A stretch of DNA of 57,920 nt from a virus (taxonomy: Duplodnaviria; Caudoviricetes). Positions within the stretch are counted from its first letter, which is position 1. Each line of letters starts with the position of its first letter. The notes under the pieces are model-generated. The model did no database searches and was not told the origin of the DNA. It saw only the letters and a list, made by a program, of their open reading frames with translations. Location of the stretch: positions 1 to 57,920 of IMG/VR virus record IMGVR_UViG_3300011115_000450. One strand, 5' to 3'. Shown in pieces: positions 3,594 through 50,818 of this stretch. Position numbers and translations under genes: made by a program.

Positions 3594-3633
3594 AAAACCC
3601 CCGTCGGGCGTATCCTGACGGGGGTTTATTTTT
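3594..3633. terminator. Bidirectional rho-independent terminator between convergent operons
   Basis: AAAACCCCCGTC-loop-GACGGGGGTTTATTTT. Confidence 0.85.
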
Positions 3634-6600
3634 ATCTGCCGTAGGCTTCTTTCAGCCTTTGCAGTGGGGACTTCTCGACATCTTTTGACGCATTGATGTA
3701 AGCGCGGGTTGCGTTCATCTGCTCCCTCATCAAATCTTCGATGTCAGAGATCTGCTTCTTCTTCGCCAAGGGGGACAATTTATCGTCACCCTTGATGTGG
3801 TCGATGTCCTCACGGTAATCGTTCAGGATCTTGTCATTCTTCCGCACAAGATCGGGAAGGCTGTTCTTGCGAACAAGATTGTTGCCCCGTGTCTGGATGC
3901 CAAGTTCTTCAGTAAGCTGGTTGACCTTGCGCTCCGCAGCTGGGCTACCGGACGATGCCGCTTCTTCCCACGCATTGTTAAGCAGCTGCTCCTTAGCGAA
4001 GATCTCTTTGCGCTTGTCGTAGTAAGCACCTTCACTAATGTTGGCAGACTTCGTAACAATACGACGGAACAATGGAGACTCTTCCATCGGGGTCGGGATA
4101 CCTTCAAGCCCATCCACAATGGATTTATACGTCCTTTGAACGTATTGACCCGTCTGACCAGCAAGGCTCTTTGCCCAGTAGTCAATAGTTCCGGGGTAAA
4201 GATCAATCTTGCCCTTCTCAAACTCATCGCCGCCCGTAATGCGGTTTAGGTAGCTTGCAAGATCAACAGTCCAGCTTGGGGTTTTGCTGGAATATTGTTC
4301 GGATGCTGGCTTCTCAGCGTTCTTTGTCCCCGGCTCTGGGTGGATACGGTTCCCAAAAGAATCCCTGTTCACCGCAAGCTGAACAACAGGAAGCACGAAC
4401 CAAGGCAGGATTGCGGACCAGAATGAACCTTGGCTTGCAGGGTTGAAGGAATCGACCGCGCTTGCGGCAATGTTAACAGCAGCATCTTCTGCCGTCATAT
4501 TGCCAGTTGCCACAGCAGCCATGTTATCGCCGATGTTCCAAGCCGACTTGATAAGGAAGCCCAAATCAAACTTGTAGAAATTTCCGTCTTTGTTTTTGAC
4601 GGGGATGATGACGTTCTTTGAGCGTTCCCAGCCCTTTACCTGAGTGTAGTAGGTGTTTTTTCCGGGGTCATTTTCGTCATCATCGTTCATCCAAACGCCA
4701 AGCAGGCCAGTCAGGAAGGCCAAGAAGATTATGCCATACAGAGCGCGACGGAACCGCTTTGACATCAAGAACCGAGCGAAGTTACGGATACCGCCAACAC
4801 CAGCCGACAGGAACGGCTTGAGAGCGTTAAGCCCCGGCATCCATGCGCCCTTCTTCTGGAAGTTCACAGTGGCATTGAGAGACAGATCCGCAGCCTTGCC
4901 TTGGGTATAACCACCCTTCCGAGCTGCGAGATAGACGGCAAAGCGGACGGTGCTTTCGAAGATCTGGTTTGTCTTTTCCAGAGCCGCAATGGTCAGCCGG
5001 CCAGACTCCATCATGCCATGCACAAGTTTCTCATTAGTGGTCTTTTTGTCGTAGAAGGCTTTGAACATTTCACGGCTGATCTTGCTCTGAACCTTTTCCA
5101 AGTTTTCAAAGCCGCCATATTCCATCCTGCCGCCGCTTAAGATCCACTCATCATATAGAGCTTTGTCCTTTGCGCTTAACCCGCCGACTGTCTCGGCCTT
5201 GGCAATGATCTTCCCTGCGCCAGCCAGTTCAGTCATAAAGTTGGTGGCAAAGCCTTCCTTTGTCCCATACAGGGCAATCATCGCGTCCTGAACGTCGCGT
5301 GGGAAGTTAGTCAGGAAGAAGTCTGGAACCCATGCCGTATTGATCTTCGACATGAAGCGGCCAATCTCAAACGTGAATTTGGCCAGCTTCGATGGCGAAT
5401 CATTTGGAAGGTTCTTCAATGATTTAACCAAGCGAACCATTGCAGGGTTTTCATCATTGAACACGATGTAGCGGCTTTCACCACTGATCTTAAACGGAAT
5501 GGTCACTTCACTCCGGTAGATGCTGGTATCAGGACGCTGACGAACGGTCCCGTCTGCCGCAAGGTATTTAACCATCGGCATGTTTTTGCTGTCGAGGATC
5601 TCGGCAAAGTTTACGTTCGGGTTGTTCTTGATCAGAAGATAAAGAGCGCGGTCTACCCTGTTCTTTTCCTGACGAACAATGCCATCCATGCGCTGTTGGA
5701 TCAGGTTCTGGAATGGATTATAGGCTCTGCTTTTGCGGCCCATAGACGCCTTATATTCCTTGCCCGATACGCTGAACCCAAACCCACGGCGAAGTCCACG
5801 AGAATTTATTTCTGCATCTGCATCCTGTTCGGCATAGCCGCGCAAAGGAACATAGAAATCATACCCACCTTCGGAGTAAGGTTTTGTATATTCGTCGTAT
5901 TGGTCCTGTGTCAGCAGACCAGCGGCAAGACGTTCTTTAAGGTCAGCCCTGATTATCGGGCGAACGAACTTTTCATCAAGTCTAACTAAGGTATCATAAA
6001 TACCCTTCTTTTTGAGGGCATCCTCGATGTCCTGCGCATCATCATTCTCCATGCCTGACCCGCCATGAGGGAACCGTTTAGGGTCTCGTTTGGCCATCTT
6101 GGCATTACGTTCTGGAGCGTGACGAGCATACACAAACTCGACAAGATCAGCTTCTTCGATCTTCAGTTTCGCCATCTCATCCAGCAATGGCTGAAGCTCT
6201 TTGTCCCAAACCTGTTCCTGCCGAGCGACAACCCGATTGTTGAACAGGCCAATAGACATTTCAACATCCATTGTCTCAGGCAGCTTAGAGCCACGCGCCT
6301 TCTCAATGGCACGTTGGATCATGGAGATGTCGTTATACTTGTCAACGAGGCCATACATCAATTCGGATTTAAGAGTATCCTCGTGAACTTCATAACTTTG
6401 AGGGGTTGGTGGACCTTTGCGCTTTTGACGCAATGCCATGTAAGCAAGATCAGATGTATTGACCCCCATCTTATCGGCCATAACATCGGCTTCCATCTCC
6501 AGACGATCAGCCATGCCACCGACATAGAAGTCATTGAAGATCGAGTCCATGCTCTTCTTGCCGAACAGCTTGTTCACGACATTGCGGAACCGACGGTAGG

Positions 6601-9600
6601 TCAGCCAGACTTTGCCGAACACTTCGTAAGAAGCGCGACCCATTGCCACTGCCTTTACATTAGCATCAGCCTTGGCCCCGAACATCCCCATCGCATAGGC
6701 ATCTTGCTCTGACGTAGACAGAGCTTCAATCTTTTCGACAGGCACACCGTAATACTGAGCAACAAGGCGATTGTTCTCTGGCCGAGCGTCAGCGATTGCC
6801 TTGCGCTCTGCTGGTGTCAGCTTGTCCTCAAGGGAGTGCCATGCTTCATGGTATGTCGCGTCAGGGAGCGATGCGCCATGCTCAAGGCTTGTCGCCAGAT
6901 AGATCATGTTGGTTAGACGGTCATTCGAGCCGGAAGCATAATCATCCAGCTCACCACCGGAATCCATTGCAGCCTGTGAGTCCGTGACCTTGATCTGCTC
7001 CACAAACTCAACACGGGCCTTCTCACCCAGTGTCCGCTTGATGATACCTTCAAACTCTTTGTAGGCTTCAGGGACCACATGGGCTGTTTCGGTTTTCAGA
7101 GCAGGACGTAATACCGAATATGAGGTTTTGTTGACATTAGCAGCACCCTCGAAGTTGGCCCCAATTTCAAGTATCCGCGCAAAAAATTGATCCGCTACAT
7201 CTTTCGAGATATAAGGCGTAGTCATTTTTCTGCCGTTTGAGTAGAACCCTGATCCTCCAAGAAGTTCCCTTAACTTCCCATCAAGGAAATATGCACCGCC
7301 CTTAGATCTCGCACTGTTAACGCTAACCTGATACCCGGTATATTCTTGTTTGATAAGAACAGAGGCATCATCTTTACTTACAATAAATTTCTTTGGCGCA
7401 CTATTAACGGCAGCTTTTAACTCAGCTACTGTTTTTATCTTAGTTTTTGTTCTCCTCAAAGCAAATTCAAGATCTTTAATCATACGATTCAGCAAGATCC
7501 CTTGCTCAATTTTCCCATCTTCTGTTGTGAAGTTGATGATTTGTCCTAGACCATCGTTAATGTCAAACCCAGCAAGGATATTTCCCGTAATAATAACACG
7601 GCGTTCTTTAGCTCCACCCTTGGCAAGCATGTCAAATGTTTCGACAAACGACTCAGCCTTGTCGGTGATCCGGTTCCTGTCTAAACTATCTACAACAACT
7701 TTATCTCCAGACCCTCCACCAGCTTGCATTTGGCTCAACTTGACATTCATTATCGGAGATCCAGACGGAAACGCCAATGTCACCGTCCAGTTGCTTGGAA
7801 CAAATGGATTGGCCGACCTGTCAGAAGTCTTAAACCCGATAACCAAAGCCTGTCCGGTTTCGCCAGATGGCAATGTTGCGCGAACTCGCCGACCGGGACA
7901 AAGCATTTTGGCAAATTCCGTAAAGAATCTTTCTTGCGTATCAAATTTATCTTTAACTCTTATTTTCCTGTCTGGATCTTCAAGGTCGTCAAGAGATTCT
8001 TTAACGTAAACATTAAATTTTTCCCGATATTCCTTGACCAAATCAACATGTTTTTTAACAAACATATTATTAAGATCGTTTAGTGCAGTTACATCATTCC
8101 GTTCAAATGCTTGAGATTTGGTAAGATAGTCCTCGTCAGACCAACCAGATACGTCTTTAAGGTCAAACTTTTTAAACGAAACTTTTGGGAAAGAAACTTG
8201 CTGTGCAAAGCTACCCATCCCCTGCTCGGCAAGAACCTTATTGATTGCATCTCTTGCTGTGATGGGCTTGCCAAGTCGGTTTACGTTATAAAGCCCGTAA
8301 ACAACAGCATCGGAAAACGGGCTATCTCCCGTTGCCTCACGAGCAACAGCACTTTCAATGATCTTCGCCTTGAGATCAAGGCTCTTGGCCTCCAAGGTGC
8401 TAATTCCTTGCATCTCAAGCTGGGAAAGAAGATCTGCATATCTGCCCTCAAGATCTTCATAAATATCTTTCTGCTGATGGATTTCCAGCAACGGAATACG
8501 GCCAGTAAGCCTAGCCATAAGGCCTTCTACATCCTGCCTTACGCCATTCTGGCTGTCGCCTTCGTGGCTGCTCCGAGTATCAATATCAAGCATCAAGGCT
8601 ATTTCAGGGTTATCCTGCATAAATTGATATGCAACCAGATCACCATATTCATTCAAGAAGTCTGGAATATTCTCAGCAGTCAATGCGCTCTTACGGGCTG
8701 ATGTCGTAATGGCATTGAGTGATGCCATTTTCTTTGCAAGCACAGCAGCTGGACGTTTTTCTGCCGGAATATCGGCAACCATTTGAGTGTATTCAGGGAC
8801 AATGACCTGACCTGTGCGATGAACACGGCCAAGGGTCTGCATGTGAGTGTCAATGTTTTCGTTCGGTTGAACGATGATCATGTGACGTTGACGAACATCC
8901 TTAAAGCCCTGCTTCGCGTGGAGGGAAAGGCCAGTCGATCCAGATTTGTTAATGACAACCGCATCCAATTCCCCGCTATTGAAGTCAGAGATTGTTTTGT
9001 TTTTGCCTCTTGCAGTCGTTGCATTGCCCGGACGAGTAGCTAGGACAGGTGCGCCAACCTTGTTTTGGCCAGTCCTTTTTTTGCCATCACCGCCGCTATA
9101 GTCAAGGATAACTTGACGTCCAGTGATCTCACCAACCTTATAACCCTTTTTCTCCAAACCATACTTAATGTAGTCAATCGGAGAAATTGATAGATCGCCA
9201 AAGTCAATGCTTTCAATAAGATTTCTGGCATCGTTATACGCTTCAACGCCAGCAAACCCAAGCTCCTCATCTGTCAAATAGTGGTTTTGACCTTTTTCGC
9301 CCTTCTTCATAAAAGGTTTTTTGATAGTAAGTGTTCTTGTTCTATTAAGATACCGAATGAGCAAATCACCAAAAGTTAGTTCAACTGTATCGCCGATAGA
9401 CAAACCAAGATCATTAGCCGTTGTTTTTAAGAATGTTTCCATTGTGTTGGCAACAGTCAAAACAGGCTTCTGCCCATCCTCGATTGCCTTGAGAGCAATT
9501 TCGACGGACGGCTTTGCTTTCATTGCCAACAAAAGTTGATTGATCAGGTTGTGCATGATCGACGTAAAGTTTGTCGATTCTGCTCCTGCCCCGCCTGTAG

Positions 9601-12600
9601 ACCCATCAGAACTTACTGACGATGCGTCTGCCCTGATTGCCGCAGATATGCCCATTGCAGATTCTTTGACATACCCTGAAAATTTGTTGATCAGCCCCAT
9701 TGAACGAGAGAAATCATTATAGATTTCCTCATCCACCCCAACTAACTTTGCATCATATTTCACGCCAGCAAAAGTTCTCTCTCGGCGCATATATTGCCCA
9801 GACTTGGCAAGTGTTGCCGAAAGCACCGACATCAGAGGCACACCGCCTCTTGTCAACAATTCTGGAAGATCTTTGATGTTCCCAACTGCAAGGCCCATAT
9901 CCGTCTTAGCATACAGATCCATGACATCTGGACGTTTTGCAAACGTAGCCGATGAATAAAATGTTCCTTGTGAAAGTTGAGTAAGTTCGCGGGTAAAGTC
10001 AGCCCTGTTTAGTTCTTCATTTTTATTTTTTCCACGGGTTGCAGCTCCACCGCCACCAGCATTATGGCTTTCATCCAGAATAAGGATTGAGCTACTAGCC
10101 ATGCTATGCAAAAACTCACGGCGTAAGGTGTTTTCCCCTTTAACCGTTTGCATCTGCGAATATGTGGTAAAAATTATATCGTATCCGGGTAGCTTTTTTG
10201 TTTCGATTGCATCCCTAAAAATCTTTTCCTGATTTGGTGGGGTAGTAAGTTTTTTCCCGTCCTCATTATCATCAAGGTCGATTGGTTGGCTGACATTTGT
10301 CATAAGGATTTTCGGGTCGCGGCCAAGGTATTTTGGCAGACCGATGCCTTCCTCATTCGACATATCTCGCCACATATCCTTGTAGAGATTGTCTTTCTCT
10401 GTGACGAAGATTGGGGTCAGCTTGTTGATCAAGGCATAGCGAATGATACCAGCATTGATGCGGCCTTTGCCGATCCCTGTTTGGTCGCCAATGATGAACC
10501 CAGCACCTTTTTCAAGGTTGTCAATCGCCAAGGCAAGCGCATCAATCTGTTCGCCTGAAAAATACTTTTCCAGTTCCTCTGGCTTATATTTTAGCCGGTC
10601 GGCAACAAACGCATCAATGTCCCCACGCTTTTCTTCCAAAGCATCGAGGGCGTATTCCATTGCCGCTTTCATGTTGGCGGGGGCAAGTGTCCCCAATCCA
10701 GCTGACTGTTGAGCTTTTGGCACATAAGGAAGCTGTGTTTCAGTTTCCTCTTCGTGCTTCAGTTCGGCTCGTTTGGTATTAGCCAGTTTATTGAATCGCT
10801 CGGACTTTTGCTCTGGAGTGCCATCTTCAGATTCTTCGGGGTTAACGCCCAATCCAGATCCAGATTGTTCAACGTCAGGTTCGCCACGAATACCTTCAGT
10901 GGTTTCAGTTTTGGTCGGCTTGTTAGTATCCCCCCCTTGAACATTAGGGCGTCCACTAGATCCTGCTCTTGTTCCAGCTCCTTCCCCTCCAGTTTCTGAA
11001 ACTGGCTGAGTAGGTGCTGATACAGTTGTTGCTTCGGACTCATTTGGGATTTTCTCCTTAATCTGCTCCCAAGATGTGAGGAGTGGTGGAACTTTTGCAG
11101 CAGGGAGCGGCAAAGCTGATTTGCCCTTACCCTTGATCACGATGACATCAACAGGCCATGCCGCACCCTGTCTTTCATACAGTTTGCCGGCAACCGTGAA
11201 GTGATCTGTTACATTGTAATTGTCATACAGTGTCTTGAAGAACTCACGCTTTGCTTTGCCATGATAGGCATCAGACCGAGCTTTATCCGTCACGGCCATA
11301 GGATGAACGCTGCCTATGATCAAGACAGCATTTCCGTTTTCATTCATGTGATCCAGTGCAGCATGGGATATGGCGTGATCAATCTCAGACGTTTGATAGC
11401 CATTCTGAACCCAATCCATGTCAAAGGATCTAGTGCTTCCATTCTCAGCCTTGACTGTTCCGAACGGTGGGTTGGCAATGATTACGTCAAACTTTCCTTT
11501 AACAAAGCCATAATATGACGCATCTTTGGCAGTTGGCTCAAACCCAAGTGCTTTAAGATTATCGCGGCGCACACGATTGATCTCATTAACAGTCGTATTC
11601 TTAGGGTTGGCTTCAATGACAAGCGCACCGTTGCCAGCTGTCGGCTCAAGAACGCTCTTATCCCAGTTTACCCCAGCAAGACGGGATGCCACATAGGCAA
11701 GCGGGATTGGTGTAGAATACGCTTGGTTGGCAATGCTTTCGCTTGTCCTAGCAGTGAGCTTCGGCTGGGCGTCATACAGCTTTTGCAAGACATCGAATTT
11801 GCCTTGAGGTGTGTTGGCTTGCATCCATCGAGGCAAACTTGGATCGTTCAGTGCGACCTGACGAGCAAGAACAACCAGCGCAAGCTCAATCCCTTCTTGA
11901 ATTTCCTTGTCAGAAGATCCTTTTATCTGCGGGTGGTTTCTCAGTGTCCCCATCTGGAGAAAATCAAGGCCAGACTCTTTACCATCTTGAAGATATGGGT
12001 AAACCGTCCCTGCAATGTGGTCGATCTTATTGGTGTTTGGGCCAAAGAAGTCATAGCTCACCTTGTGCTGCTCAACGGCAGGGGGAGCGGCTTCTTCTTC
12101 CGCTACTTCCTCTTCCTTGGGCTTTGGTTTCTCTTCATCAGCAGGAGTAGCCGGAGGTGTTACAGTTTCCTCTTCAGGAGGCTTGGTTTCCTCTGGAGCA
12201 GTAGATTCCTCTGGAGGTGCTGTTTCTTCCTTGCCACCTTGCGGCTTCTGCTGCTCAGGCATTTCGGCATACTGGCTTACAGCGACAACCTCATTGCCGA
12301 AGTGGGTTGTTGTAAAGAATGATGGGACATTGCCGTTTGCATCGACAACCTTGGTCTTTTCACCTTGCCACAACTCAAGAGGATATTTGCCAATCTCAGG
12401 GGTGTTTGTGTATGGAACCTTTGACTGAGATGGGGATGCGCCCCACTTACCGTCAGGGTTTTTGGTGACAAGCGTCGCTGTGCCATCGTTATGATCAACA
12501 ATCGCCCACTCTTTGTTGTCAGGCGGAGCAAGTGCATTTGCGCCATCACGATCCAAGAACACAGTTTTTTCGCTCTGAGGCTTGATACCTTCATCGCCGG

Positions 12601-14482
12601 GATGCTCAGGACGAGGAGCTTTGTTGCGGATGGTTTTGCCATCCGTTGTCATCTCATACTCAGACCCTTTGGAGGTCTTGAATGTAAACGCATGTTCAAC
12701 AGGCGCAGTCTCTGGTTCAGCAGCAGGCTTCTCACCAGTTGGAGTTTGTGGCTCTTCAATCGTTGGTTTGGTTACACCTGTAGGCTCTTCAACACTTGGT
12801 GCTTCCGGCGGGGTAGTGGTTTCCGTCGGGACAGGAGGACGAAGAGACTGCAACCCTTTGATAATGTCATCTTGTTGCCAAGGAGCAAGGTTTTCCCACG
12901 GGGTGTTGCCCGGCACATTGGGGGTCCGCTTTTTAATTTCTAATTGCAGAACGCCTAGATCTGGATTGCCGTTCTTATCTTTCGGCAGCTCATTGATAGC
13001 ATCACCAATAGGACGGCCACCACGAGCTTCGTTCTCCGCCTTTTCTTTTTCTATCCGAACCTGTTCTGCCAAAGCATCGAGATTTGGTTTTTCAGCCGTA
13101 GCAGTGGTCGTTGTCGTAGATGTTTCAGTTGCTGGCTTTGCGCCACCTTCAGGGGGAACAGAGGCCGGGGGAGTTTCCGGCCTCTGCCCCTCAACACCAT
13201 CCGGGGGGGTGGATGATGGAGTCTTTTTCTTTCCTGTATCAAGAAGCTCTTCAACAGTAGTGCGTGGCTTGAAGATCTGGTTGTATTCTTCAGGGGTCAG
13301 AGGCTCAGGCTTGATGCCCTGCTGTGCAAGATCACGAGCCGTTGCAGCTCGTTCTTCAGGACTCATAATAGCAATGTCATCAGCACCGAACTTGCCGCCC
13401 TTGAGGATCTCGGCTTCGGTGACGGATTGGTTACGGGCCTGTGGCTGTTCAGCCGCACCGCCGCCAGCTGGTCCACCTTCCTTTGGCTGACCGCCTTCTG
13501 GTCCACGACCACCGCCCTGTGGTCCTTCCAGCAAACGGTTTGAGGGTGGGCCTTTTGGCCTTCCACCGCCGCTTGGGATAAAACCAGCAGCTTCAAACGG
13601 CAACCCAGTCGCTACGCCTTGGACGTATTCTTTAAGGATCTCTTCTCCGGTCGCTGGCTCTTCATCGTTGACCATCCGCTTCACGCCAGATCCAGTAATA
13701 GATACGGCTGGATATGCTACACCAACTCGTTGGAGCATCCCCTTAAGCCCACCGCCTCCGGGGATCATTCCATAAATTGCACCCTGAGCAGCAGAGATGC
13801 CAGCTTCTTTCATAGCTGCCGCATCAATATCTGACTTATTCTTCATGTAGACGGCGTTGAATTGCTCGGCGTCACCGAAATCGCCACCGCGCTTGCGGGT
13901 CTGGTTAATCAATGCACGAGCATAAGCATCTGCCCCAAACGAAAATGTGCCAGCAGCAGCAGCACCAGCAGGACCACCAGCCATTGTTCCAGCAATAGTG
14001 GCCCCCATAGGCACAATGCTTTCAACCATGCCTTGCCCAGTTTCCTTGGCAAAACCACCAGGATCTTCCTGAACGGCTTTGATAAAGCCTTTTTCTTTTT
14101 CGATCTGGCTGAACTTGGTTGGGTTTTTTTCGCGTTCAGCGTCACGTTTTGCAATGGTATCGAGTGAGCGTTGCAGTGCAGCAACGTCAGCAGGGTCTTG
14201 CGAACCAAGGTTTGCAGCACCGCTGTAGTATGCGACGCCGGGAATATCACCAATGGGAATATCACTGATGTCTGACGCAGGAGCCATCGGCCCAGTTGTG
14301 CTGGGAGCAAATGACATTGGGTCTATAGGAGCAACTTCTTCCTGAGCTACAGGGGCTTGAGTTACCTGTGCTGCTTCTGGACGGCGGGGAGGAATAGGTG
14401 TTTTGAAAACCGGATCATTTTCCCACCATTTGCTGTTGGACTGACCTTGATAAATAGGGTCGTTACTCCACCATTGCGCCAT
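3632..14482 (-). CDS. Large polyvalent DarB-like virion/ejection protein: N6-adenine MTase, strawberry-notch-type SF2 helicase, HExxH zincin, LPD38-like C-terminus
   Basis: VLEPTAGNG and NPPF (MTase); GDQTGIGKGR, DESH, GSTGLSLHA, QTLGRVHRTGQ (helicase); YHEAWH; last gene of the structural operon after the ejection proteins. Confidence 0.85.
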   Translation of the reverse strand: MAQWWSNDPIYQGQSNSKWWENDPVFKTPIPPRRPEAAQVTQAPVAQEEVAPIDPMSFAPSTTGPMAPASDISDIPIGDIPGVAYYSGAANLGSQDPADVAALQRSLDTIAKRDAEREKNPTKFSQIEKEKGFIKAVQEDPGGFAKETGQGMVESIVPMGATIAGTMAGGPAGAAAAGTFSFGADAYARALINQTRKRGGDFGDAEQFNAVYMKNKSDIDAAAMKEAGISAAQGAIYGMIPGGGGLKGMLQRVGVAYPAVSITGSGVKRMVNDEEPATGEEILKEYVQGVATGLPFEAAGFIPSGGGRPKGPPSNRLLEGPQGGGRGPEGGQPKEGGPAGGGAAEQPQARNQSVTEAEILKGGKFGADDIAIMSPEERAATARDLAQQGIKPEPLTPEEYNQIFKPRTTVEELLDTGKKKTPSSTPPDGVEGQRPETPPASVPPEGGAKPATETSTTTTTATAEKPNLDALAEQVRIEKEKAENEARGGRPIGDAINELPKDKNGNPDLGVLQLEIKKRTPNVPGNTPWENLAPWQQDDIIKGLQSLRPPVPTETTTPPEAPSVEEPTGVTKPTIEEPQTPTGEKPAAEPETAPVEHAFTFKTSKGSEYEMTTDGKTIRNKAPRPEHPGDEGIKPQSEKTVFLDRDGANALAPPDNKEWAIVDHNDGTATLVTKNPDGKWGASPSQSKVPYTNTPEIGKYPLELWQGEKTKVVDANGNVPSFFTTTHFGNEVVAVSQYAEMPEQQKPQGGKEETAPPEESTAPEETKPPEEETVTPPATPADEEKPKPKEEEVAEEEAAPPAVEQHKVSYDFFGPNTNKIDHIAGTVYPYLQDGKESGLDFLQMGTLRNHPQIKGSSDKEIQEGIELALVVLARQVALNDPSLPRWMQANTPQGKFDVLQKLYDAQPKLTARTSESIANQAYSTPIPLAYVASRLAGVNWDKSVLEPTAGNGALVIEANPKNTTVNEINRVRRDNLKALGFEPTAKDASYYGFVKGKFDVIIANPPFGTVKAENGSTRSFDMDWVQNGYQTSEIDHAISHAALDHMNENGNAVLIIGSVHPMAVTDKARSDAYHGKAKREFFKTLYDNYNVTDHFTVAGKLYERQGAAWPVDVIVIKGKGKSALPLPAAKVPPLLTSWEQIKEKIPNESEATTVSAPTQPVSETGGEGAGTRAGSSGRPNVQGGDTNKPTKTETTEGIRGEPDVEQSGSGLGVNPEESEDGTPEQKSERFNKLANTKRAELKHEEETETQLPYVPKAQQSAGLGTLAPANMKAAMEYALDALEEKRGDIDAFVADRLKYKPEELEKYFSGEQIDALALAIDNLEKGAGFIIGDQTGIGKGRINAGIIRYALINKLTPIFVTEKDNLYKDMWRDMSNEEGIGLPKYLGRDPKILMTNVSQPIDLDDNEDGKKLTTPPNQEKIFRDAIETKKLPGYDIIFTTYSQMQTVKGENTLRREFLHSMASSSILILDESHNAGGGGAATRGKNKNEELNRADFTRELTQLSQGTFYSSATFAKRPDVMDLYAKTDMGLAVGNIKDLPELLTRGGVPLMSVLSATLAKSGQYMRRERTFAGVKYDAKLVGVDEEIYNDFSRSMGLINKFSGYVKESAMGISAAIRADASSVSSDGSTGGAGAESTNFTSIMHNLINQLLLAMKAKPSVEIALKAIEDGQKPVLTVANTMETFLKTTANDLGLSIGDTVELTFGDLLIRYLNRTRTLTIKKPFMKKGEKGQNHYLTDEELGFAGVEAYNDARNLIESIDFGDLSISPIDYIKYGLEKKGYKVGEITGRQVILDYSGGDGKKRTGQNKVGAPVLATRPGNATTARGKNKTISDFNSGELDAVVINKSGSTGLSLHAKQGFKDVRQRHMIIVQPNENIDTHMQTLGRVHRTGQVIVPEYTQMVADIPAEKRPAAVLAKKMASLNAITTSARKSALTAENIPDFLNEYGDLVAYQFMQDNPEIALMLDIDTRSSHEGDSQNGVRQDVEGLMARLTGRIPLLEIHQQKDIYEDLEGRYADLLSQLEMQGISTLEAKSLDLKAKIIESAVAREATGDSPFSDAVVYGLYNVNRLGKPITARDAINKVLAEQGMGSFAQQVSFPKVSFKKFDLKDVSGWSDEDYLTKSQAFERNDVTALNDLNNMFVKKHVDLVKEYREKFNVYVKESLDDLEDPDRKIRVKDKFDTQERFFTEFAKMLCPGRRVRATLPSGETGQALVIGFKTSDRSANPFVPSNWTVTLAFPSGSPIMNVKLSQMQAGGGSGDKVVVDSLDRNRITDKAESFVETFDMLAKGGAKERRVIITGNILAGFDINDGLGQIINFTTEDGKIEQGILLNRMIKDLEFALRRTKTKIKTVAELKAAVNSAPKKFIVSKDDASVLIKQEYTGYQVSVNSARSKGGAYFLDGKLRELLGGSGFYSNGRKMTTPYISKDVADQFFARILEIGANFEGAANVNKTSYSVLRPALKTETAHVVPEAYKEFEGIIKRTLGEKARVEFVEQIKVTDSQAAMDSGGELDDYASGSNDRLTNMIYLATSLEHGASLPDATYHEAWHSLEDKLTPAERKAIADARPENNRLVAQYYGVPVEKIEALSTSEQDAYAMGMFGAKADANVKAVAMGRASYEVFGKVWLTYRRFRNVVNKLFGKKSMDSIFNDFYVGGMADRLEMEADVMADKMGVNTSDLAYMALRQKRKGPPTPQSYEVHEDTLKSELMYGLVDKYNDISMIQRAIEKARGSKLPETMDVEMSIGLFNNRVVARQEQVWDKELQPLLDEMAKLKIEEADLVEFVYARHAPERNAKMAKRDPKRFPHGGSGMENDDAQDIEDALKKKGIYDTLVRLDEKFVRPIIRADLKERLAAGLLTQDQYDEYTKPYSEGGYDFYVPLRGYAEQDADAEINSRGLRRGFGFSVSGKEYKASMGRKSRAYNPFQNLIQQRMDGIVRQEKNRVDRALYLLIKNNPNVNFAEILDSKNMPMVKYLAADGTVRQRPDTSIYRSEVTIPFKISGESRYIVFNDENPAMVRLVKSLKNLPNDSPSKLAKFTFEIGRFMSKINTAWVPDFFLTNFPRDVQDAMIALYGTKEGFATNFMTELAGAGKIIAKAETVGGLSAKDKALYDEWILSGGRMEYGGFENLEKVQSKISREMFKAFYDKKTTNEKLVHGMMESGRLTIAALEKTNQIFESTVRFAVYLAARKGGYTQGKAADLSLNATVNFQKKGAWMPGLNALKPFLSAGVGGIRNFARFLMSKRFRRALYGIIFLAFLTGLLGVWMNDDDENDPGKNTYYTQVKGWERSKNVIIPVKNKDGNFYKFDLGFLIKSAWNIGDNMAAVATGNMTAEDAAVNIAASAVDSFNPASQGSFWSAILPWFVLPVVQLAVNRDSFGNRIHPEPGTKNAEKPASEQYSSKTPSWTVDLASYLNRITGGDEFEKGKIDLYPGTIDYWAKSLAGQTGQYVQRTYKSIVDGLEGIPTPMEESPLFRRIVTKSANISEGAYYDKRKEIFAKEQLLNNAWEEAASSGSPAAERKVNQLTEELGIQTRGNNLVRKNSLPDLVRKNDKILNDYREDIDHIKGDDKLSPLAKKKQISDIEDLMREQMNATRAYINASKDVEKSPLQRLKEAYGR

Positions 14483-14494
14483 CAAAGTCTCCTA

Positions 14495-43701: not shown

Positions 43702-44010
43702 GTTACCCCCTTTATCAATGTTACCCCTCACGGCTTGGGTAACGTGTCTGGCATTGCGACTCAGCACGGTCTTTCAACCATGATGACGTATCCAGATCAA
43801 ACGCCGATGTTGGTCGTGATGGACTTATCTGGGATAAGACCCCAACAGAGCGGCAAACTTATTTGTGGGCGGGGTGGCTGACGCTGTTCTGCTTCGCCAC
43901 CCCTACAAAGTTGAAACAGCAAAAAAACTTCTACCCACCAGCCTATAACCCGATTTCTATTCGCCACGGATCAGATCCAGTGGTCGGGGGGAGGCCAATC
44001 CCGTATTTGT

Positions 44011-46763: not shown

Positions 46764-47015
46764 ATCACCCTCAATCTTGGATATTAGCCGCACTTGTTGG
46801 ATTATGCACAGGTTTGGGGGGATGTAAATCAAAAGTTTGAAAAAATTTGGGGGGGGTCTGTATGTTGTGGGGTCAATCTCCGATTGGGGGTGACGGCTTC
46901 GGCAGAGCCGACGGCTGGCGACGGCGAAGCCGAAAGAGAGACGGAACGGGAAGGGAGAGAATGAAATAGGCTGTAAATGTCCTATTTCAGCCTCATTTTA
47001 GGACACAGAGGCCGC

Positions 47016-47378
47016 TTATGCCTCCGACATCTCACTCGCCAGCAGCGTGATGGTGGGCTTTTCCCGCTGTCTAGCGAGATCAGCCAGCACTTGGAGAGCC
47101 TTTCCTAGCTCACTCTCGACCCGCAAGGGCTGCACTGCATCCCCTTTAACCTCAACGCTGGCTAGCCTCGCATGAACGTAGGGAGCGGCAGCAATGGCGC
47201 ACTGGACCCGATCCCTGTGATCCTGCTTTTCGTCCTGCATCACAGCCAGCAGGAAGGCCAACGGACTGGTCTCTGGCGATAAGCTACTGATCTTGTTGAT
47301 CTTATCCAGCGAGATCGTCGGTCTGTTCTTCGATCCTGCCTTGCGTCCCGCGCCGACTCTCGCGCCTCCCTTACCCAT
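47016..47378 (-). CDS. Putative terminase small subunit
   Basis: GGARVGAGRKAGSKN..PLAFLLAVM.D..R..CA.AAAPYVHARL. Confidence 0.65.
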   Translation of the reverse strand: MGKGGARVGAGRKAGSKNRPTISLDKINKISSLSPETSPLAFLLAVMQDEKQDHRDRVQCAIAAAPYVHARLASVEVKGDAVQPLRVESELGKALQVLADLARQREKPTITLLASEMSEA

Positions 47379-47695
47379 TTCGTGTCCTTTCGCTGATTGT
47401 TTCCGTCTAACAGGCTGGAAACATTAGAGCAGGATCGTCTGAAATTCAATGATTTCTCCCCTGCTGGTTGAATGATCTGGCTTTGCTGGTTGATTGTTTC
47501 CCCTGTCCCTTTGATATGCCTGTCCCCTTGTTAGTCTCTCCCCTAGGTGAGGCTGTGATCGGCATCAGCAACAGGCTGTTGGCGAATTTTCCGAAACTGC
47601 CCGATCCTGCGCGAGATTCGCCTCCGCAGCCGTCGATCAGGCTAGGCAGATACCCGACGAGCGACACTCTGCTCGATCACAGGGTTCGAGACGAT

Positions 47696-47724
47696 TTGAC
47701 AAAATGTCCGAATCAGGGCATTGT
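47696..47724 (+). promoter_or_regulatory. Putative sigma70 promoter of the early operon
   Basis: TTGACA-17-CATTGT; a second TTGACA at 47743. Confidence 0.45.
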
Positions 47725-47770
47725 GTCCTGACTAACCGCTCATTGACATCGTGAAACCCAGAAACAACCT

Positions 47771-47830
47771 AGCCGAAACGGGAGGCCTCGCGCCTTCCGT
47801 CGCAGGGATAGAGACCTGCTCGACAAGGCT
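47771..47830 (+). ncRNA. Type II hammerhead ribozyme, variant core (U3-A8, C4)
   Basis: AGCC-GAAA-CGGGAGGC/GCCTTCCG-TC^-GCAGG/CCTGC-TCGACAA-GGCT; predicted cleavage after C47801. Confidence 0.75.
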
Positions 47831-47846
47831 CATAGGAGAAACCACA

Positions 47847-48161
47847 ATGGACATTGAGAAAGAAATTGCCACCAAGATCGTCCGCTCGGCACTGGCCAAA
47901 CGCTGGTCTGTCTCGGTTCACGATGACATCACCAACGAGGGCGAATGGACGGTTAGAAAATCGCGCCATATGCCTCAAATCATGGAAGCACTGGCCACGA
48001 CCGAAGGCGACATCCTGCTGCTGCACGATGACGAAGGCAAACAGGTCGGGATGATCGTCCTGATCTGGGGAAATGGCGAGGATTTGATACACGACCATTC
48101 AGCCAAACTTCAGATCCGCGAGGATGGCTGGATTTACGGGATCGAAGGCAAGGATCACTAA
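47847..48161 (+). CDS. Early-region hypothetical protein
   Basis: GGAGAAACCACAATG RBS. Confidence 0.75.
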   Translation: MDIEKEIATKIVRSALAKRWSVSVHDDITNEGEWTVRKSRHMPQIMEALATTEGDILLLHDDEGKQVGMIVLIWGNGEDLIHDHSAKLQIREDGWIYGIEGKDH

Positions 48162-48216
48162 GGCATTGCAATCCGAGAGGCAGGACATCCCTGCCTCTCC
48201 CGTGGCAATGTCGCCA
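48162..48216 (+). ncRNA. Unrecognised structured intergenic motif, copy 1
   Basis: GGCATTGC-AATCC-GAGAGGCAGG..CCTGCCTCTC-CCGTG-GCAATGTC-GCCA. Confidence 0.7.
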
Positions 48217-48232
48217 GCTAGGAGAAACCACA

Positions 48233-48439
48233 ATGTTTCGTATCACATATTTCGGCGCCTACTCGGTCAACCAGCTAGCCCGAGTGTTCGACGATTATCA
48301 CGACGCGATCGAATATCTCGACAAGCAATACAAAGTCATCCACTGGGAAGAGGATGAGGATCATCCTTGGCACTTCGACGTTGCAGTCGCCAAAGGACCG
48401 ACCGGAACCTACGCAGTCGAGCCGATCATCAGCGAATAA
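48233..48439 (+). CDS. Early-region hypothetical protein
   Basis: GGAGAAACCACAATG RBS. Confidence 0.7.
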   Translation: MFRITYFGAYSVNQLARVFDDYHDAIEYLDKQYKVIHWEEDEDHPWHFDVAVAKGPTGTYAVEPIISE

Positions 48440-48451
48440 GGAGATAACACC

Positions 48452-48637
48452 ATGACGCCACGCTTTTCAGGACTGCCGAAGTTCAGCGACGATCCCGTCC
48501 AGAACGCAGAGATGACCGCCGAGTATTTATGGGACTGCCGCATTGCAGGGGAAGACCCGTATGGCGGCGGTTCGTATGACGATGACCCAGACGAATACGA
48601 CGAATACGACGAATACGAGGACGAAGAAGAGGACTAA
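48452..48637 (+). CDS. Small acidic protein
   Basis: AAGGAG RBS; C-terminal DDDPDEYDEYDEYEDEEED. Confidence 0.7.
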   Translation: MTPRFSGLPKFSDDPVQNAEMTAEYLWDCRIAGEDPYGGGSYDDDPDEYDEYDEYEDEEED

Positions 48638-48639
48638 GC

Positions 48640-48693
48640 TAGTGCAATCCGAAGGCAGGGCCGATCCCCTGCCTTCCCGTGGCACTACCGCCA
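48640..48693 (+). ncRNA. Unrecognised structured intergenic motif, copy 2
   Basis: TAGTGC-AATCC-GAAGGCAGGG..CCCTGCCTTC-CCGTG-GCACTA-CCGCCA (compensatory outer stem). Confidence 0.7.
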
Positions 48694-48714
48694 ACAACGA
48701 GAGGAGAAAACACC

Positions 48715-48972
48715 ATGATCTATGTAAACATGACCGACAAGGCAATGAGCGGCTGGGGAGAGGCGCGAGGCGGTTTAAGTTATTACTGCGTCGCCTGTGA
48801 CACTTGGGATCAGGCCGCAGCTATCGAAAAGGCAGCGCGAGATCGCAAAGAGATGATCAGGATCGCAAAATCCGACAAGCCTCGTTACGGGCATGGCCAC
48901 ACAAGGATCAAGCACTTCGATGAATTGGGCGACGTATGGAAAGGCTACTACAAGCCGAGCGTCGCGGCCTAA
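48715..48972 (+). CDS. Early-region hypothetical protein
   Basis: GAGGAG RBS; YVNMTDKAMSGWGEA. Confidence 0.75.
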   Translation: MIYVNMTDKAMSGWGEARGGLSYYCVACDTWDQAAAIEKAARDRKEMIRIAKSDKPRYGHGHTRIKHFDELGDVWKGYYKPSVAA

Positions 48973-49024
48973 CATTGCAATCAGGGGACAGGTTCGCGCC
49001 TGTCCTCGCGTGGCAATGTTGCCA
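48971..49024 (+). ncRNA. Unrecognised structured intergenic motif, copy 3
   Basis: AACATTGC-AATCA-GGGGACAGG..CCTGTCCTC-GCGTG-GCAATGTT-GCCA (compensatory inner stem). Confidence 0.7.
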
Positions 49025-49041
49025 GAACGGAGAAAACCACA

Positions 49042-49386
49042 ATGCAAAAACCATACAATGCGATCCCAAAGCCCACTTGGTCCCCTTGGGGACAGCCCGA
49101 CCATGCAGAGCAGCCAATGGCTGGAATCTGGTCGATTTATACACCAAGCCACGGCGGCTTCTATGTTTCCGCCGAACGGCGCAAGGACATGCCAGCAGAA
49201 TGGCTCGCCATGTCATTCGTCGGCAAAGGCAAGGACGGCTGGTTCGAAGAAGATGTTGATTGGTGCATGGTTGCCCTAGCCTTTCCCGACGAATGGAAAG
49301 CATGGCGCGGATCAGCAGGGGAGACCGATCTCGAAGCCGCGCAGCGGACCATGACCGAATGGGTTCTGAAACGGAGAGCATCATGA
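49042..49386 (+). CDS. DUF7007-like protein
   Basis: SPWG..GIW...TPSHGGF.VS.ER..WFEEDVDW. Confidence 0.7.
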   Translation: MQKPYNAIPKPTWSPWGQPDHAEQPMAGIWSIYTPSHGGFYVSAERRKDMPAEWLAMSFVGKGKDGWFEEDVDWCMVALAFPDEWKAWRGSAGETDLEAAQRTMTEWVLKRRAS

Positions 49387-49583: not shown

Positions 49584-49759
49584 AAATCAAAACGTTCAAG
49601 AACGGTGCTTACGCTACATTCGAAAAAACCATACACGGCTATTATCTTGTGACATGTCGCGGACCCAATGGTGCGCTAATCGACAAAGTAATGTGCGACG
49701 ATTATGCCAACGCTCGCGCCTATTACAAATCTTTCGCGGCTATTGCGCGGCAGTCTTGA
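49580..49759 (+). CDS. Hypothetical protein (59 aa; not in the ORF track)
   Basis: GGAGG RBS, ATGA coupling; MKIKTFKNGAYATFEK.. Confidence 0.65.
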   Translation: MKIKTFKNGAYATFEKTIHGYYLVTCRGPNGALIDKVMCDDYANARAYYKSFAAIARQS

Positions 49760-49813
49760 CATTGCAATCCGAAGGCAGGGCTACCCCCCTGCCTTCCCGT
49801 GGCAATGTTGCCA
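49758..49813 (+). ncRNA. Unrecognised structured intergenic motif, copy 4
   Basis: GACATTGC-AATCC-GAAGGCAGGG..CCCTGCCTTC-CCGTG-GCAATGTT-GCCA. Confidence 0.7.
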
Positions 49814-49832
49814 GTATGAGGAGAAAACCACA

Positions 49833-50475: not shown

Positions 50476-50763
50476 ATGTTTACAGTCGCAATATGCCTAG
50501 CTGATCGCGCCTATGGTGGCCCCGAAGAGGGGGGTTGGTATTACGGGTGCGGTATCCCTGCTGATGATTATGCAGATCTGGTGCAAGGTTTCAGCACCAG
50601 AGAAGCCGCCGACCGATACGCTGATTATCTCGAAACGACATGCGTCGCGCTCAACGAAGGCAAGCCCGACATTAACAGCGTGTTAAGCGAAGGCCGCTAC
50701 GTTGCGGTGGTGTTCGAGGGCTACCCTCGACACTGGCCCGACCGAAAGCCGACATACGAATAG
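50476..50763 (+). CDS. Hypothetical protein
   Basis: DRAYGGPEEGGWYY motif; RBS. Confidence 0.7.
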   Translation: MFTVAICLADRAYGGPEEGGWYYGCGIPADDYADLVQGFSTREAADRYADYLETTCVALNEGKPDINSVLSEGRYVAVVFEGYPRHWPDRKPTYE

Positions 50764-50818
50764 GCCGAAACTGGGGGGCAACCCCCAGTCATCCCGTCAA
50801 GCGGGGTCTGACGAGGCC
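50763..50818 (+). ncRNA. Type II hammerhead ribozyme, canonical core
   Basis: GGCC-GAAA-CTGGGGG(GCAA)CCCCCAG-TC^-ATCCCG/CGGGGT-CTGACGA-GGCC; predicted cleavage after C50790. Confidence 0.9.

Follow-up and report, generated by a model that had tools for sequence, protein, structure and literature searches.

Natural and engineered departures from the consensus hammerhead core have been described in several systems. According to the sections of Perreault et al. (2011, PMC3088659) on which we draw here, the C3-G8 pair of the core is replaced by covariation to U3-A8 in several natural hammerheads, a swap already known to be active in vitro, and a viroid hammerhead with a U4C change is weak in vitro and sufficient in vivo (citing Ambros and Flores 1998). 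The same source places the 5' end of an early transcript of halovirus HF2 within 3 nt of the cleavage site of a variant hammerhead, and states that about 40% of hammerheads use a pseudoknot, the others having unknown contacts or none. When a type III hammerhead was mutated pairwise, every single or double change in the CUGA turn left little activity, with the exception of a C:G to G:C swap (PMC9901934), and a natural A6C hammerhead variant was found to prefer Mn2+ (PMC7151607). In phage DNA, several self-cleaving motifs have been described next to small ORFs without a known function, and their role was left open in a 2017 review (PMC6155905).

The window analyzed here is a 57,920-nt stretch of DNA, and its source record is a complete virus genome. 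The encoded proteins are phage-like and include a large terminase, a portal protein, a helicase, a RusA-like protein, and the product of a 3,617-aa ORF. An initial annotation had placed a type II hammerhead at 47771-47830 on the plus strand, with the layout AGCC-GAAA-stem III-GUC-stem I-UCGACAA-GGCU, and every one of these elements was found at its assigned position. The 8-bp stem III, the 5-bp stem I, and the core U3 C4 G5 A6 C7 A8 A9 were likewise correct in all details. The parts of the element are as follows:

47771-47774, plus strand: 3'-side strand of stem II, AGCC (positions 11.4 to 11.1), paired with 47827-47830 in the minimum free energy (MFE) fold
47775-47778, plus strand: core GAAA, that is, G12, A13, A14, and A15.1, read from the sequence
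47779-47799, plus strand: stem III hairpin CGGGAGGC[CUCGC]GCCUUCCG, 8 bp including one G-U, with loop CUCGC, from the MFE fold
47800-47801, plus strand: U16.1 and C17, with the predicted cut between 47801 and 47802
47802-47819, plus strand: stem I hairpin GCAGG[GAUAGAGA]CCUGC, 5 bp, from the sequence and the MFE fold
47820-47826, plus strand: core U3 C4 G5 A6 C7 A8 A9 (UCGACAA), read from the sequence
47827-47830, plus strand: 5'-side strand of stem II, GGCU (positions 10.1 to 10.4), from the sequence and the MFE fold

The MFE fold of 47765-47850 was a three-way junction of -30.3 kcal/mol (z = -3.0), and a single one of 200 shuffled sequences folded as well. The helix order, from the 3' strand of stem II through stem III and stem I to the 5' strand of stem II, with closed loops on stems I and III, was present in the sequence, the MFE fold, and the descriptor match given below. 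The pair A47778-U47800 (A15.1-U16.1), also in the MFE fold, adds to the eight pairs of stem III, and the cleavage triplet GUC is formed by G47799, U47800, and C47801. The nucleotides G12, A13, and A14, the pair A15.1-U16.1, C17 (H17), G5, A6, A9, and the pair G10.1-C11.1 were all in place (47774-47778, 47800-47801, and 47822-47827). The 3-8 tertiary pair was present as U3-A8 (47820 and 47825) instead of C3-G8, and position 47821 held a C where the CUGA turn has the uridine U4. The core therefore departs from the consensus at three positions outside N7 simultaneously, and its remaining nucleotides are intact. By inspection, neither flank contained a complement to the loop GAUAGAGA, either in the window copy or in its orthologue on viral contig L030, and a search of these two copies for tertiary contacts, including a pseudoknot between loop I and stem II, found none.

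The element was then compared to the described systems. Like the type II hammerheads of phages and prophages in the Rfam family RF02276, it has the permuted helix order, G10.1-C11.1, and A15.1-U16.1, and it is likewise intergenic, directly upstream of a ribosome-binding site (RBS) and near another hammerhead; unlike them, it has the core UCGACAA rather than CUGANGA, no loop I/tail pseudoknot that we could find, and no match to the family at E<=10. It carries the same isosteric replacement of C3-G8 as the natural U3-A8 covariants (PMC3088659), and at least 11 distinct U3-A8 contig sequences with U4, including that of L030, have the same stem II. To these covariants the window adds C4, which among the matches listed was shared only by contig L016 and its copy L206. 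The U4C change is common to the window and to hammerheads with a CCGANGA core (the viroid U4C variant and phage examples), but those retain C3-G8 and mostly have a clear pseudoknot, whereas the window pairs C4 with U3-A8. In haloviruses HF1/HF2, as in the window, a variant-core hammerhead lies at the head of a viral operon, there that of an early polycistronic transcript. These viruses are archaeal, and their hammerhead is a salt-adapted variant with different core changes and a mapped transcript end. We regard HF2 as the closest functional precedent (PMC3088659).

To place the pattern against chance, we used a type II descriptor consisting of GAAA, an A-U-closed stem III of at least 5 bp, a position 17 other than G, a 7-nt core with at most 3 changes from the consensus, a stem I of at least 4 bp, and a stem II of at least 3 bp. 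It matched twice in the window, at 47771-47830 (3 core deviations) and at 50764-50817 (0 deviations). In 100 dinucleotide shuffles it found 0.13 sites per shuffle, with one or more sites in 13 of the 100. The pattern on its own is thus suggestive, being only modestly above chance, and it is the comparative data (L030, L016, and the family alignment), not the pattern alone, that set the element apart from a chance match. The expectation that standard searches would miss it was borne out, since no hammerhead match at E<=10 was obtained in an Rfam scan of 47650-47950, a whole-window scan, or a genome search. The 37-bit threshold of RF02276 (Hammerhead_II) was not reached by the window element, and the L030 orthologue scored 18.3 bits. 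The window copy is a hammerhead-family element overlooked by the standard Rfam model. Two other candidate identities were rejected: freshwater-2 (RF02980; 17.4 bits versus a cut-off of 49.9, E = 2) and an Rfam xanthine match to the region were both at chance level. A blastn search of 47000-49000 against GenBank phages gave no match.

The RusA-like protein encoded 2 kb downstream of the element has relatives on four viral contigs, of which the L030 copy is 90% identical, and in the orthologous intergenic region of that contig, positions 3690-3755 aligned to the window element. Stem II and the entire stem I hairpin were identical between the two. Stem III of L030, CGGUCC[CCUCUU]GGACCG, has a different sequence in which pairing is kept by compensatory changes, and the flank directly upstream of the element (about 47749-47770) was far less conserved in the alignment. 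The L030 core is UUGAUAA (U3 U4 G5 A6 U7 A8 A9), from which the window differs by U4 to C and by U7 to C, position 7 being free. An exact search with stem I returned just L089 and L375, both with the same sequence as L030, leaving one distinct orthologue, and a search for relatives with the downstream protein P0002 found none. Relative to this sole orthologue, C4 is specific to the window lineage.

A second lineage with the same core came from a strict pattern with fixed GCC-GAAAC, GUC, and UCGACAA-GGC. This matched 28 viral stretches, about the estimated chance number, and only L016 was structured among them. L016, an unrelated phage with an identical copy in L206, reads AGCC-GAAA-10 bp stem III-GUC-8 bp stem I-UCGACAA-GGC; its stem III is perfect, and its stem sequences are unrelated to those of the window, while the core is the same. 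Loop I of this copy (CUGGCU) can pair with AGCCAG of the 3' tail in a 6-bp pseudoknot, a kind of tertiary contact that many hammerheads have (PMC3088659), and an RBS and ATG follow. When metagenomes and genomes were scanned for UCGACAA, only L206 was well structured among the 239 matches listed, a lower-bound count that covers forms with this stem II. With the pattern relaxed to accept either pyrimidine at position 4 and any nucleotide at position 7, 133 matches were listed, 30 of them well structured and representing 13 distinct U3-A8 sequences. Position 4 is C in two of these 13 (the window and L016) and U in the other 11, and most show loop I/tail complementarity and a downstream RBS.

We trained a covariance model on nine of the U4 sequences, with the window excluded. 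It ranked the window element first within the window (20.9 bits, E about 1e-3), a score whose independence is limited by the use of a window-derived pattern to find the training sequences. In six of these loci the model also found second hammerheads that the pattern had not picked out, with CUGAYGA cores, about 500 nt away. MAFFT did not recover the correct structure when all 13 family sequences were aligned, and a model-based alignment of 19 hits (17 distinct rows) was used in its place. In these 17 rows, which are fitted to the model, 98.6% of cells were paired and 13 of 17 pairs showed double-sided changes; none of 500 shuffles reached this pairing level, nor did a slid control come close. 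All eight pairs of stem I covaried across the family, and GAAA and GUC were each invariant in the 17 distinct sequences. When RF02276 was applied to the U3-A8 copies, L070 scored 49.1 bits and other copies 34 to 36 bits, L016 not being listed, and the family grades continuously into Rfam-positive hammerheads such as L070. The proposal of a hammerhead-family element having a compensatory U3-A8 swap and an added U4C change is supported, and the swap itself, which the initial annotation took as established, is a published natural covariant (PMC3088659). These data also show that a standard hammerhead model can miss clear homologues, in that the window element has no Rfam match though its orthologue and family are recognizable.

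Position 4 was examined in the frame with an otherwise standard core. A complete scan for CCGANGA (C4 with C3-G8) gave 77 matches in 72 stretches, and 39 of the 77 were well structured, representing 37 distinct phage sequences, many with clear pseudoknots. For the CUGANGA frame, at least 90 structured cases were present among the 137 matches listed, and the share of C4 is by this comparison at most about 30%. Four of five C4 copies tested with RF02276 scored above 37 bits (41 to 47.7) and the fifth scored 33.6. Given these 37 distinct structured cases and the four tested copies that passed RF02276, U4 is not an absolute feature of hammerheads. Although the U at this position is commonly depicted as invariant, an appreciable minority of the phage type II elements carry C instead. 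Both C4 and U3-A8 are established natural states of phage hammerheads. Their combination, U3-C4-A8, is rare and was found in two lineages among the matches listed. The novelty initially attached to the core was for this reason overstated as far as the single changes are concerned, U3-A8 being published and frequent in phage contigs and C4 being present in the distinct sequences counted above. The rarity of the triple combination stood, and the novelty of this core within a type II family is modest. Our literature searches found no description of a U3/C4/A8 core, and the 20 results listed for the sequence itself were unrelated primer matches; Figures S6 and S7 of PMC3088659, in which tested core variants are listed, may include C4 or the combination, and PMC13481778 contained nothing on core variants.

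The surroundings of the element contain these further features:

47696-47701 and 47743-47748, plus strand: two TTGACA boxes conserved in L030, a possible promoter/operator region
47835-47839, plus strand: Shine-Dalgarno sequence AGGAG, 5' of the ATG at 47847
47847-48161, plus strand: downstream gene P0002 (104 aa), from the ATG at 47847 to the stop at 48161, matching PHROG 5680 (E 4e-12) from residue 3
50763-50818, plus strand: canonical, paralogous type II hammerhead with 0 core deviations and a predicted cut after C50790

The genes upstream of the element are on the minus strand, which places it in a divergent intergenic region as the leader of the first plus-strand gene (ATG 47847), at the head of the operon as originally proposed. 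The product of this gene, P0002, matches PHROG families of unknown function, and its start region, GGAGAAACCACAATG, recurs within the operon. Eight plus-strand genes (47847, 48233, 48452, 48715, 49042, 49833, 50845, and 51352) have in common a start region that reads GGAGAAA(A)CCACAATG or differs from it only slightly; hammerheads precede two of the eight and a structured repeat of about 55 nt precedes four. The start of the RusA-like gene is probably 49833 rather than the longest-ORF ATG at 49704. A consensus promoter scan called none upstream of the element, and its one match, TCGACA-17-CACAAT, which overlaps both the hammerhead core and the ATG and was within shuffle expectation, was discarded. 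At 47703-47718, flanked by a TTGACA box and a weak -10-like hexamer, is the inverted repeat ATGTCC-N6-GGGCAT (ATGTCC-N6-GGACAT in L030), a possible operator for the divergent control region.

The second hammerhead of the operon, 3 kb downstream, has the sequence GGCC-GAAA-CUGGGGG[GCAA]CCCCCAG-UC-AUCCCG[UCAAG]CGGGGU-CUGACGA-GGCC. The UAG stop of the ORF upstream overlaps its first bases, an RBS and an ATG (50845) follow it, and it is conserved in L030 and L031. It scored 27.5 bits on RF02276 (E 4.6e-5), under the cut-off of 37, and for that reason the Rfam scans of the window omit it. Related phage contigs bear several hammerheads and twisters. With its two hammerheads, one variant and one canonical, and its four structured repeats, each directly upstream of a gene start, the operon is a compact system in which to address the role of intergenic ribozymes in phage mRNAs, the question left open in PMC6155905.

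Taken together, the above-described comparisons lead us to favor the reading that the element belongs, by descent and architecture, to the type II phage hammerheads, that it lies in an operon leader, and that it probably self-cleaves. A transcript carrying it as the 5' leader of the first plus-strand operon gene would fold into the three-way junction and cleave itself between C47801 and G47802, and the leader would be removed. The stem III hairpin, bearing a 2',3'-cyclic phosphate, would form the end of the released leader. The new 5' end of the mRNA would lie 33 nt before the Shine-Dalgarno sequence and would consist of a 5'-OH followed by the stem I hairpin. A 5'-OH and hairpin ends would be expected to slow exonucleolytic and 5'-end-dependent decay. 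In the MFE fold, CCU at 47768-47770 pairs with AGG of the RBS, a pairing that is not conserved in L030. After cleavage, just the 4-bp stem II would link the two products, and stem II and the CCU/AGG extension would be expected to fall apart; to judge from the CCU/AGG pairing, product release could free the RBS. If transcription began 3' of position 47771, part of the ribozyme would be missing.

Cleavage at C47801/G47802 has most likely been retained, perhaps at a slower rate than with a consensus core. A cytosine at position 4 lacks the N3-H that is donated by the U-turn uridine. A slower rate would be expected from the weak viroid U4C variant and from the poorly active CUGA-turn mutants. If the triple-variant core cleaves, it would widen the sequence space for hammerhead searches and provide a natural test of the interplay between the U-turn and the 3-8 pair.

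The same activity data bear on a less probable explanation, to which we nevertheless give real weight: that the element is a dead relic, descended from an active U3-A8 hammerhead of the L030 form, in which U4C abolished useful cleavage. The RNA would then have been kept as a structured leader, either stabilizing the 5' end or modulating access to the Shine-Dalgarno sequence. The core deviates at three positions at once, no tertiary contact was detected, Rfam gave no hit, and C4 is lineage specific with respect to the only orthologue, L030, all of which is as expected of a relic. The much weaker in vitro activity of the viroid U4C variant (PMC3088659), the poor activity of the CUGA-turn mutants (PMC9901934), and the MFE pairing of CCU 47768-47770 with AGG of the RBS point in the same direction. 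Conversely, the rest of the core is intact, and C4 is frequent in phage hammerheads that are otherwise perfect. Moreover, in the unrelated phage L016, UCGACAA is accompanied by long stems and a 6-bp pseudoknot, and keeping these would serve no purpose if this core were dead.

It is also conceivable, and in our judgment improbable, that the U3-C4-A8 core marks a selected, conditionally active subclass in which cleavage would depend on pH, through protonation of C4, or on a particular metal ion, for which the Mn2+ preference of the natural A6C variant (PMC7151607) is a precedent. If so, the phage would time or gate the removal of the early-operon leader by the state of the host cell.

We consider it more doubtful still that the element is a non-ribozyme regulatory leader, such as a protein-binding site or a freshwater-2-like cis-regulatory motif, with only the appearance of a hammerhead. 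It does match freshwater-2 weakly and lies directly upstream of an RBS, and a different structured repeat occupies other intergenic sites of the operon, but the freshwater-2 score is at chance level, L030 bears a published hammerhead core variant, and the family grades into L070, which is Rfam positive at 49.1 bits. A chance resemblance with no function, for which the 0.13 descriptor matches per shuffled window could be cited, has very little probability left and is effectively refuted by the conservation in L030 with compensatory change, the identical core with different stems in L016, and the covariation in the family alignment; the paralogous canonical hammerhead in the same operon also speaks against it.

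Several other structured RNAs were observed in these searches. Canonical-core hammerheads in which a U is inserted between A9 and stem II (CUGAYGA-U-GGC or GAC) were seen at L056:3156-3229, L037:2453-2527, L093:13172-13238 (minus strand), and similar sites; stem II of L093 covaries (GAC/GUC). Twister ribozymes share phage contigs with C4 or U3-A8 hammerheads (L390:5043-5101; L070:662-719, minus strand; L381), with scores of 59.7 bits for twister-P1 (below the cut-off of 67.2) and 37.7 bits for Twister-P5 (at the cut-off), and a 1.2-kb stretch of L381 carries three hammerheads, one with U4 and two with C4. RAGATH-26, an RNA motif linked with hammerhead and twister loci, gave partial matches of 23.6 bits, with the internal part missing, in two relatives of the window phage (L031:8134-8169 and L032:6108-6143).

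The structured repeat of the window occurs in four plus-strand copies, at about 48164-48214, 48647-48700, 48973-49025, and 49762-49815, each directly 5' of the RBS of a gene. It consists of an outer helix, CAUUGC/GCAAUG, an inner helix of 9 to 10 bp, and a conserved internal loop, AAUCC / CCGUG, followed by UGCCAG. Ten of its 18 predicted pairs covaried in six copies. It had no Rfam match, and outside the window it was found only in the relatives L523 and L485; it may serve for RNase III-type processing or for protein binding, or it may be an unrecognized ribozyme. A near-palindromic hairpin of about 100 nt lies at 49207-49306, inside the ORF at 49042-49386. A miRNA-precursor model matched it on both strands, and we take the family name to be spurious and the long inverted repeat to be real. 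On the minus strand, a CyVA-1 RNA (RF02965) was found at 43863-43940 (47.4 bits versus a cut-off of 41.4), between the end of the terminase gene and small minus-strand ORFs. The 3,617-aa ORF, at 3632-14485 on the minus strand, matches large phage proteins of unknown function over its C-terminal 900 aa and contains a methyltransferase-like stretch near residues 917-1064.
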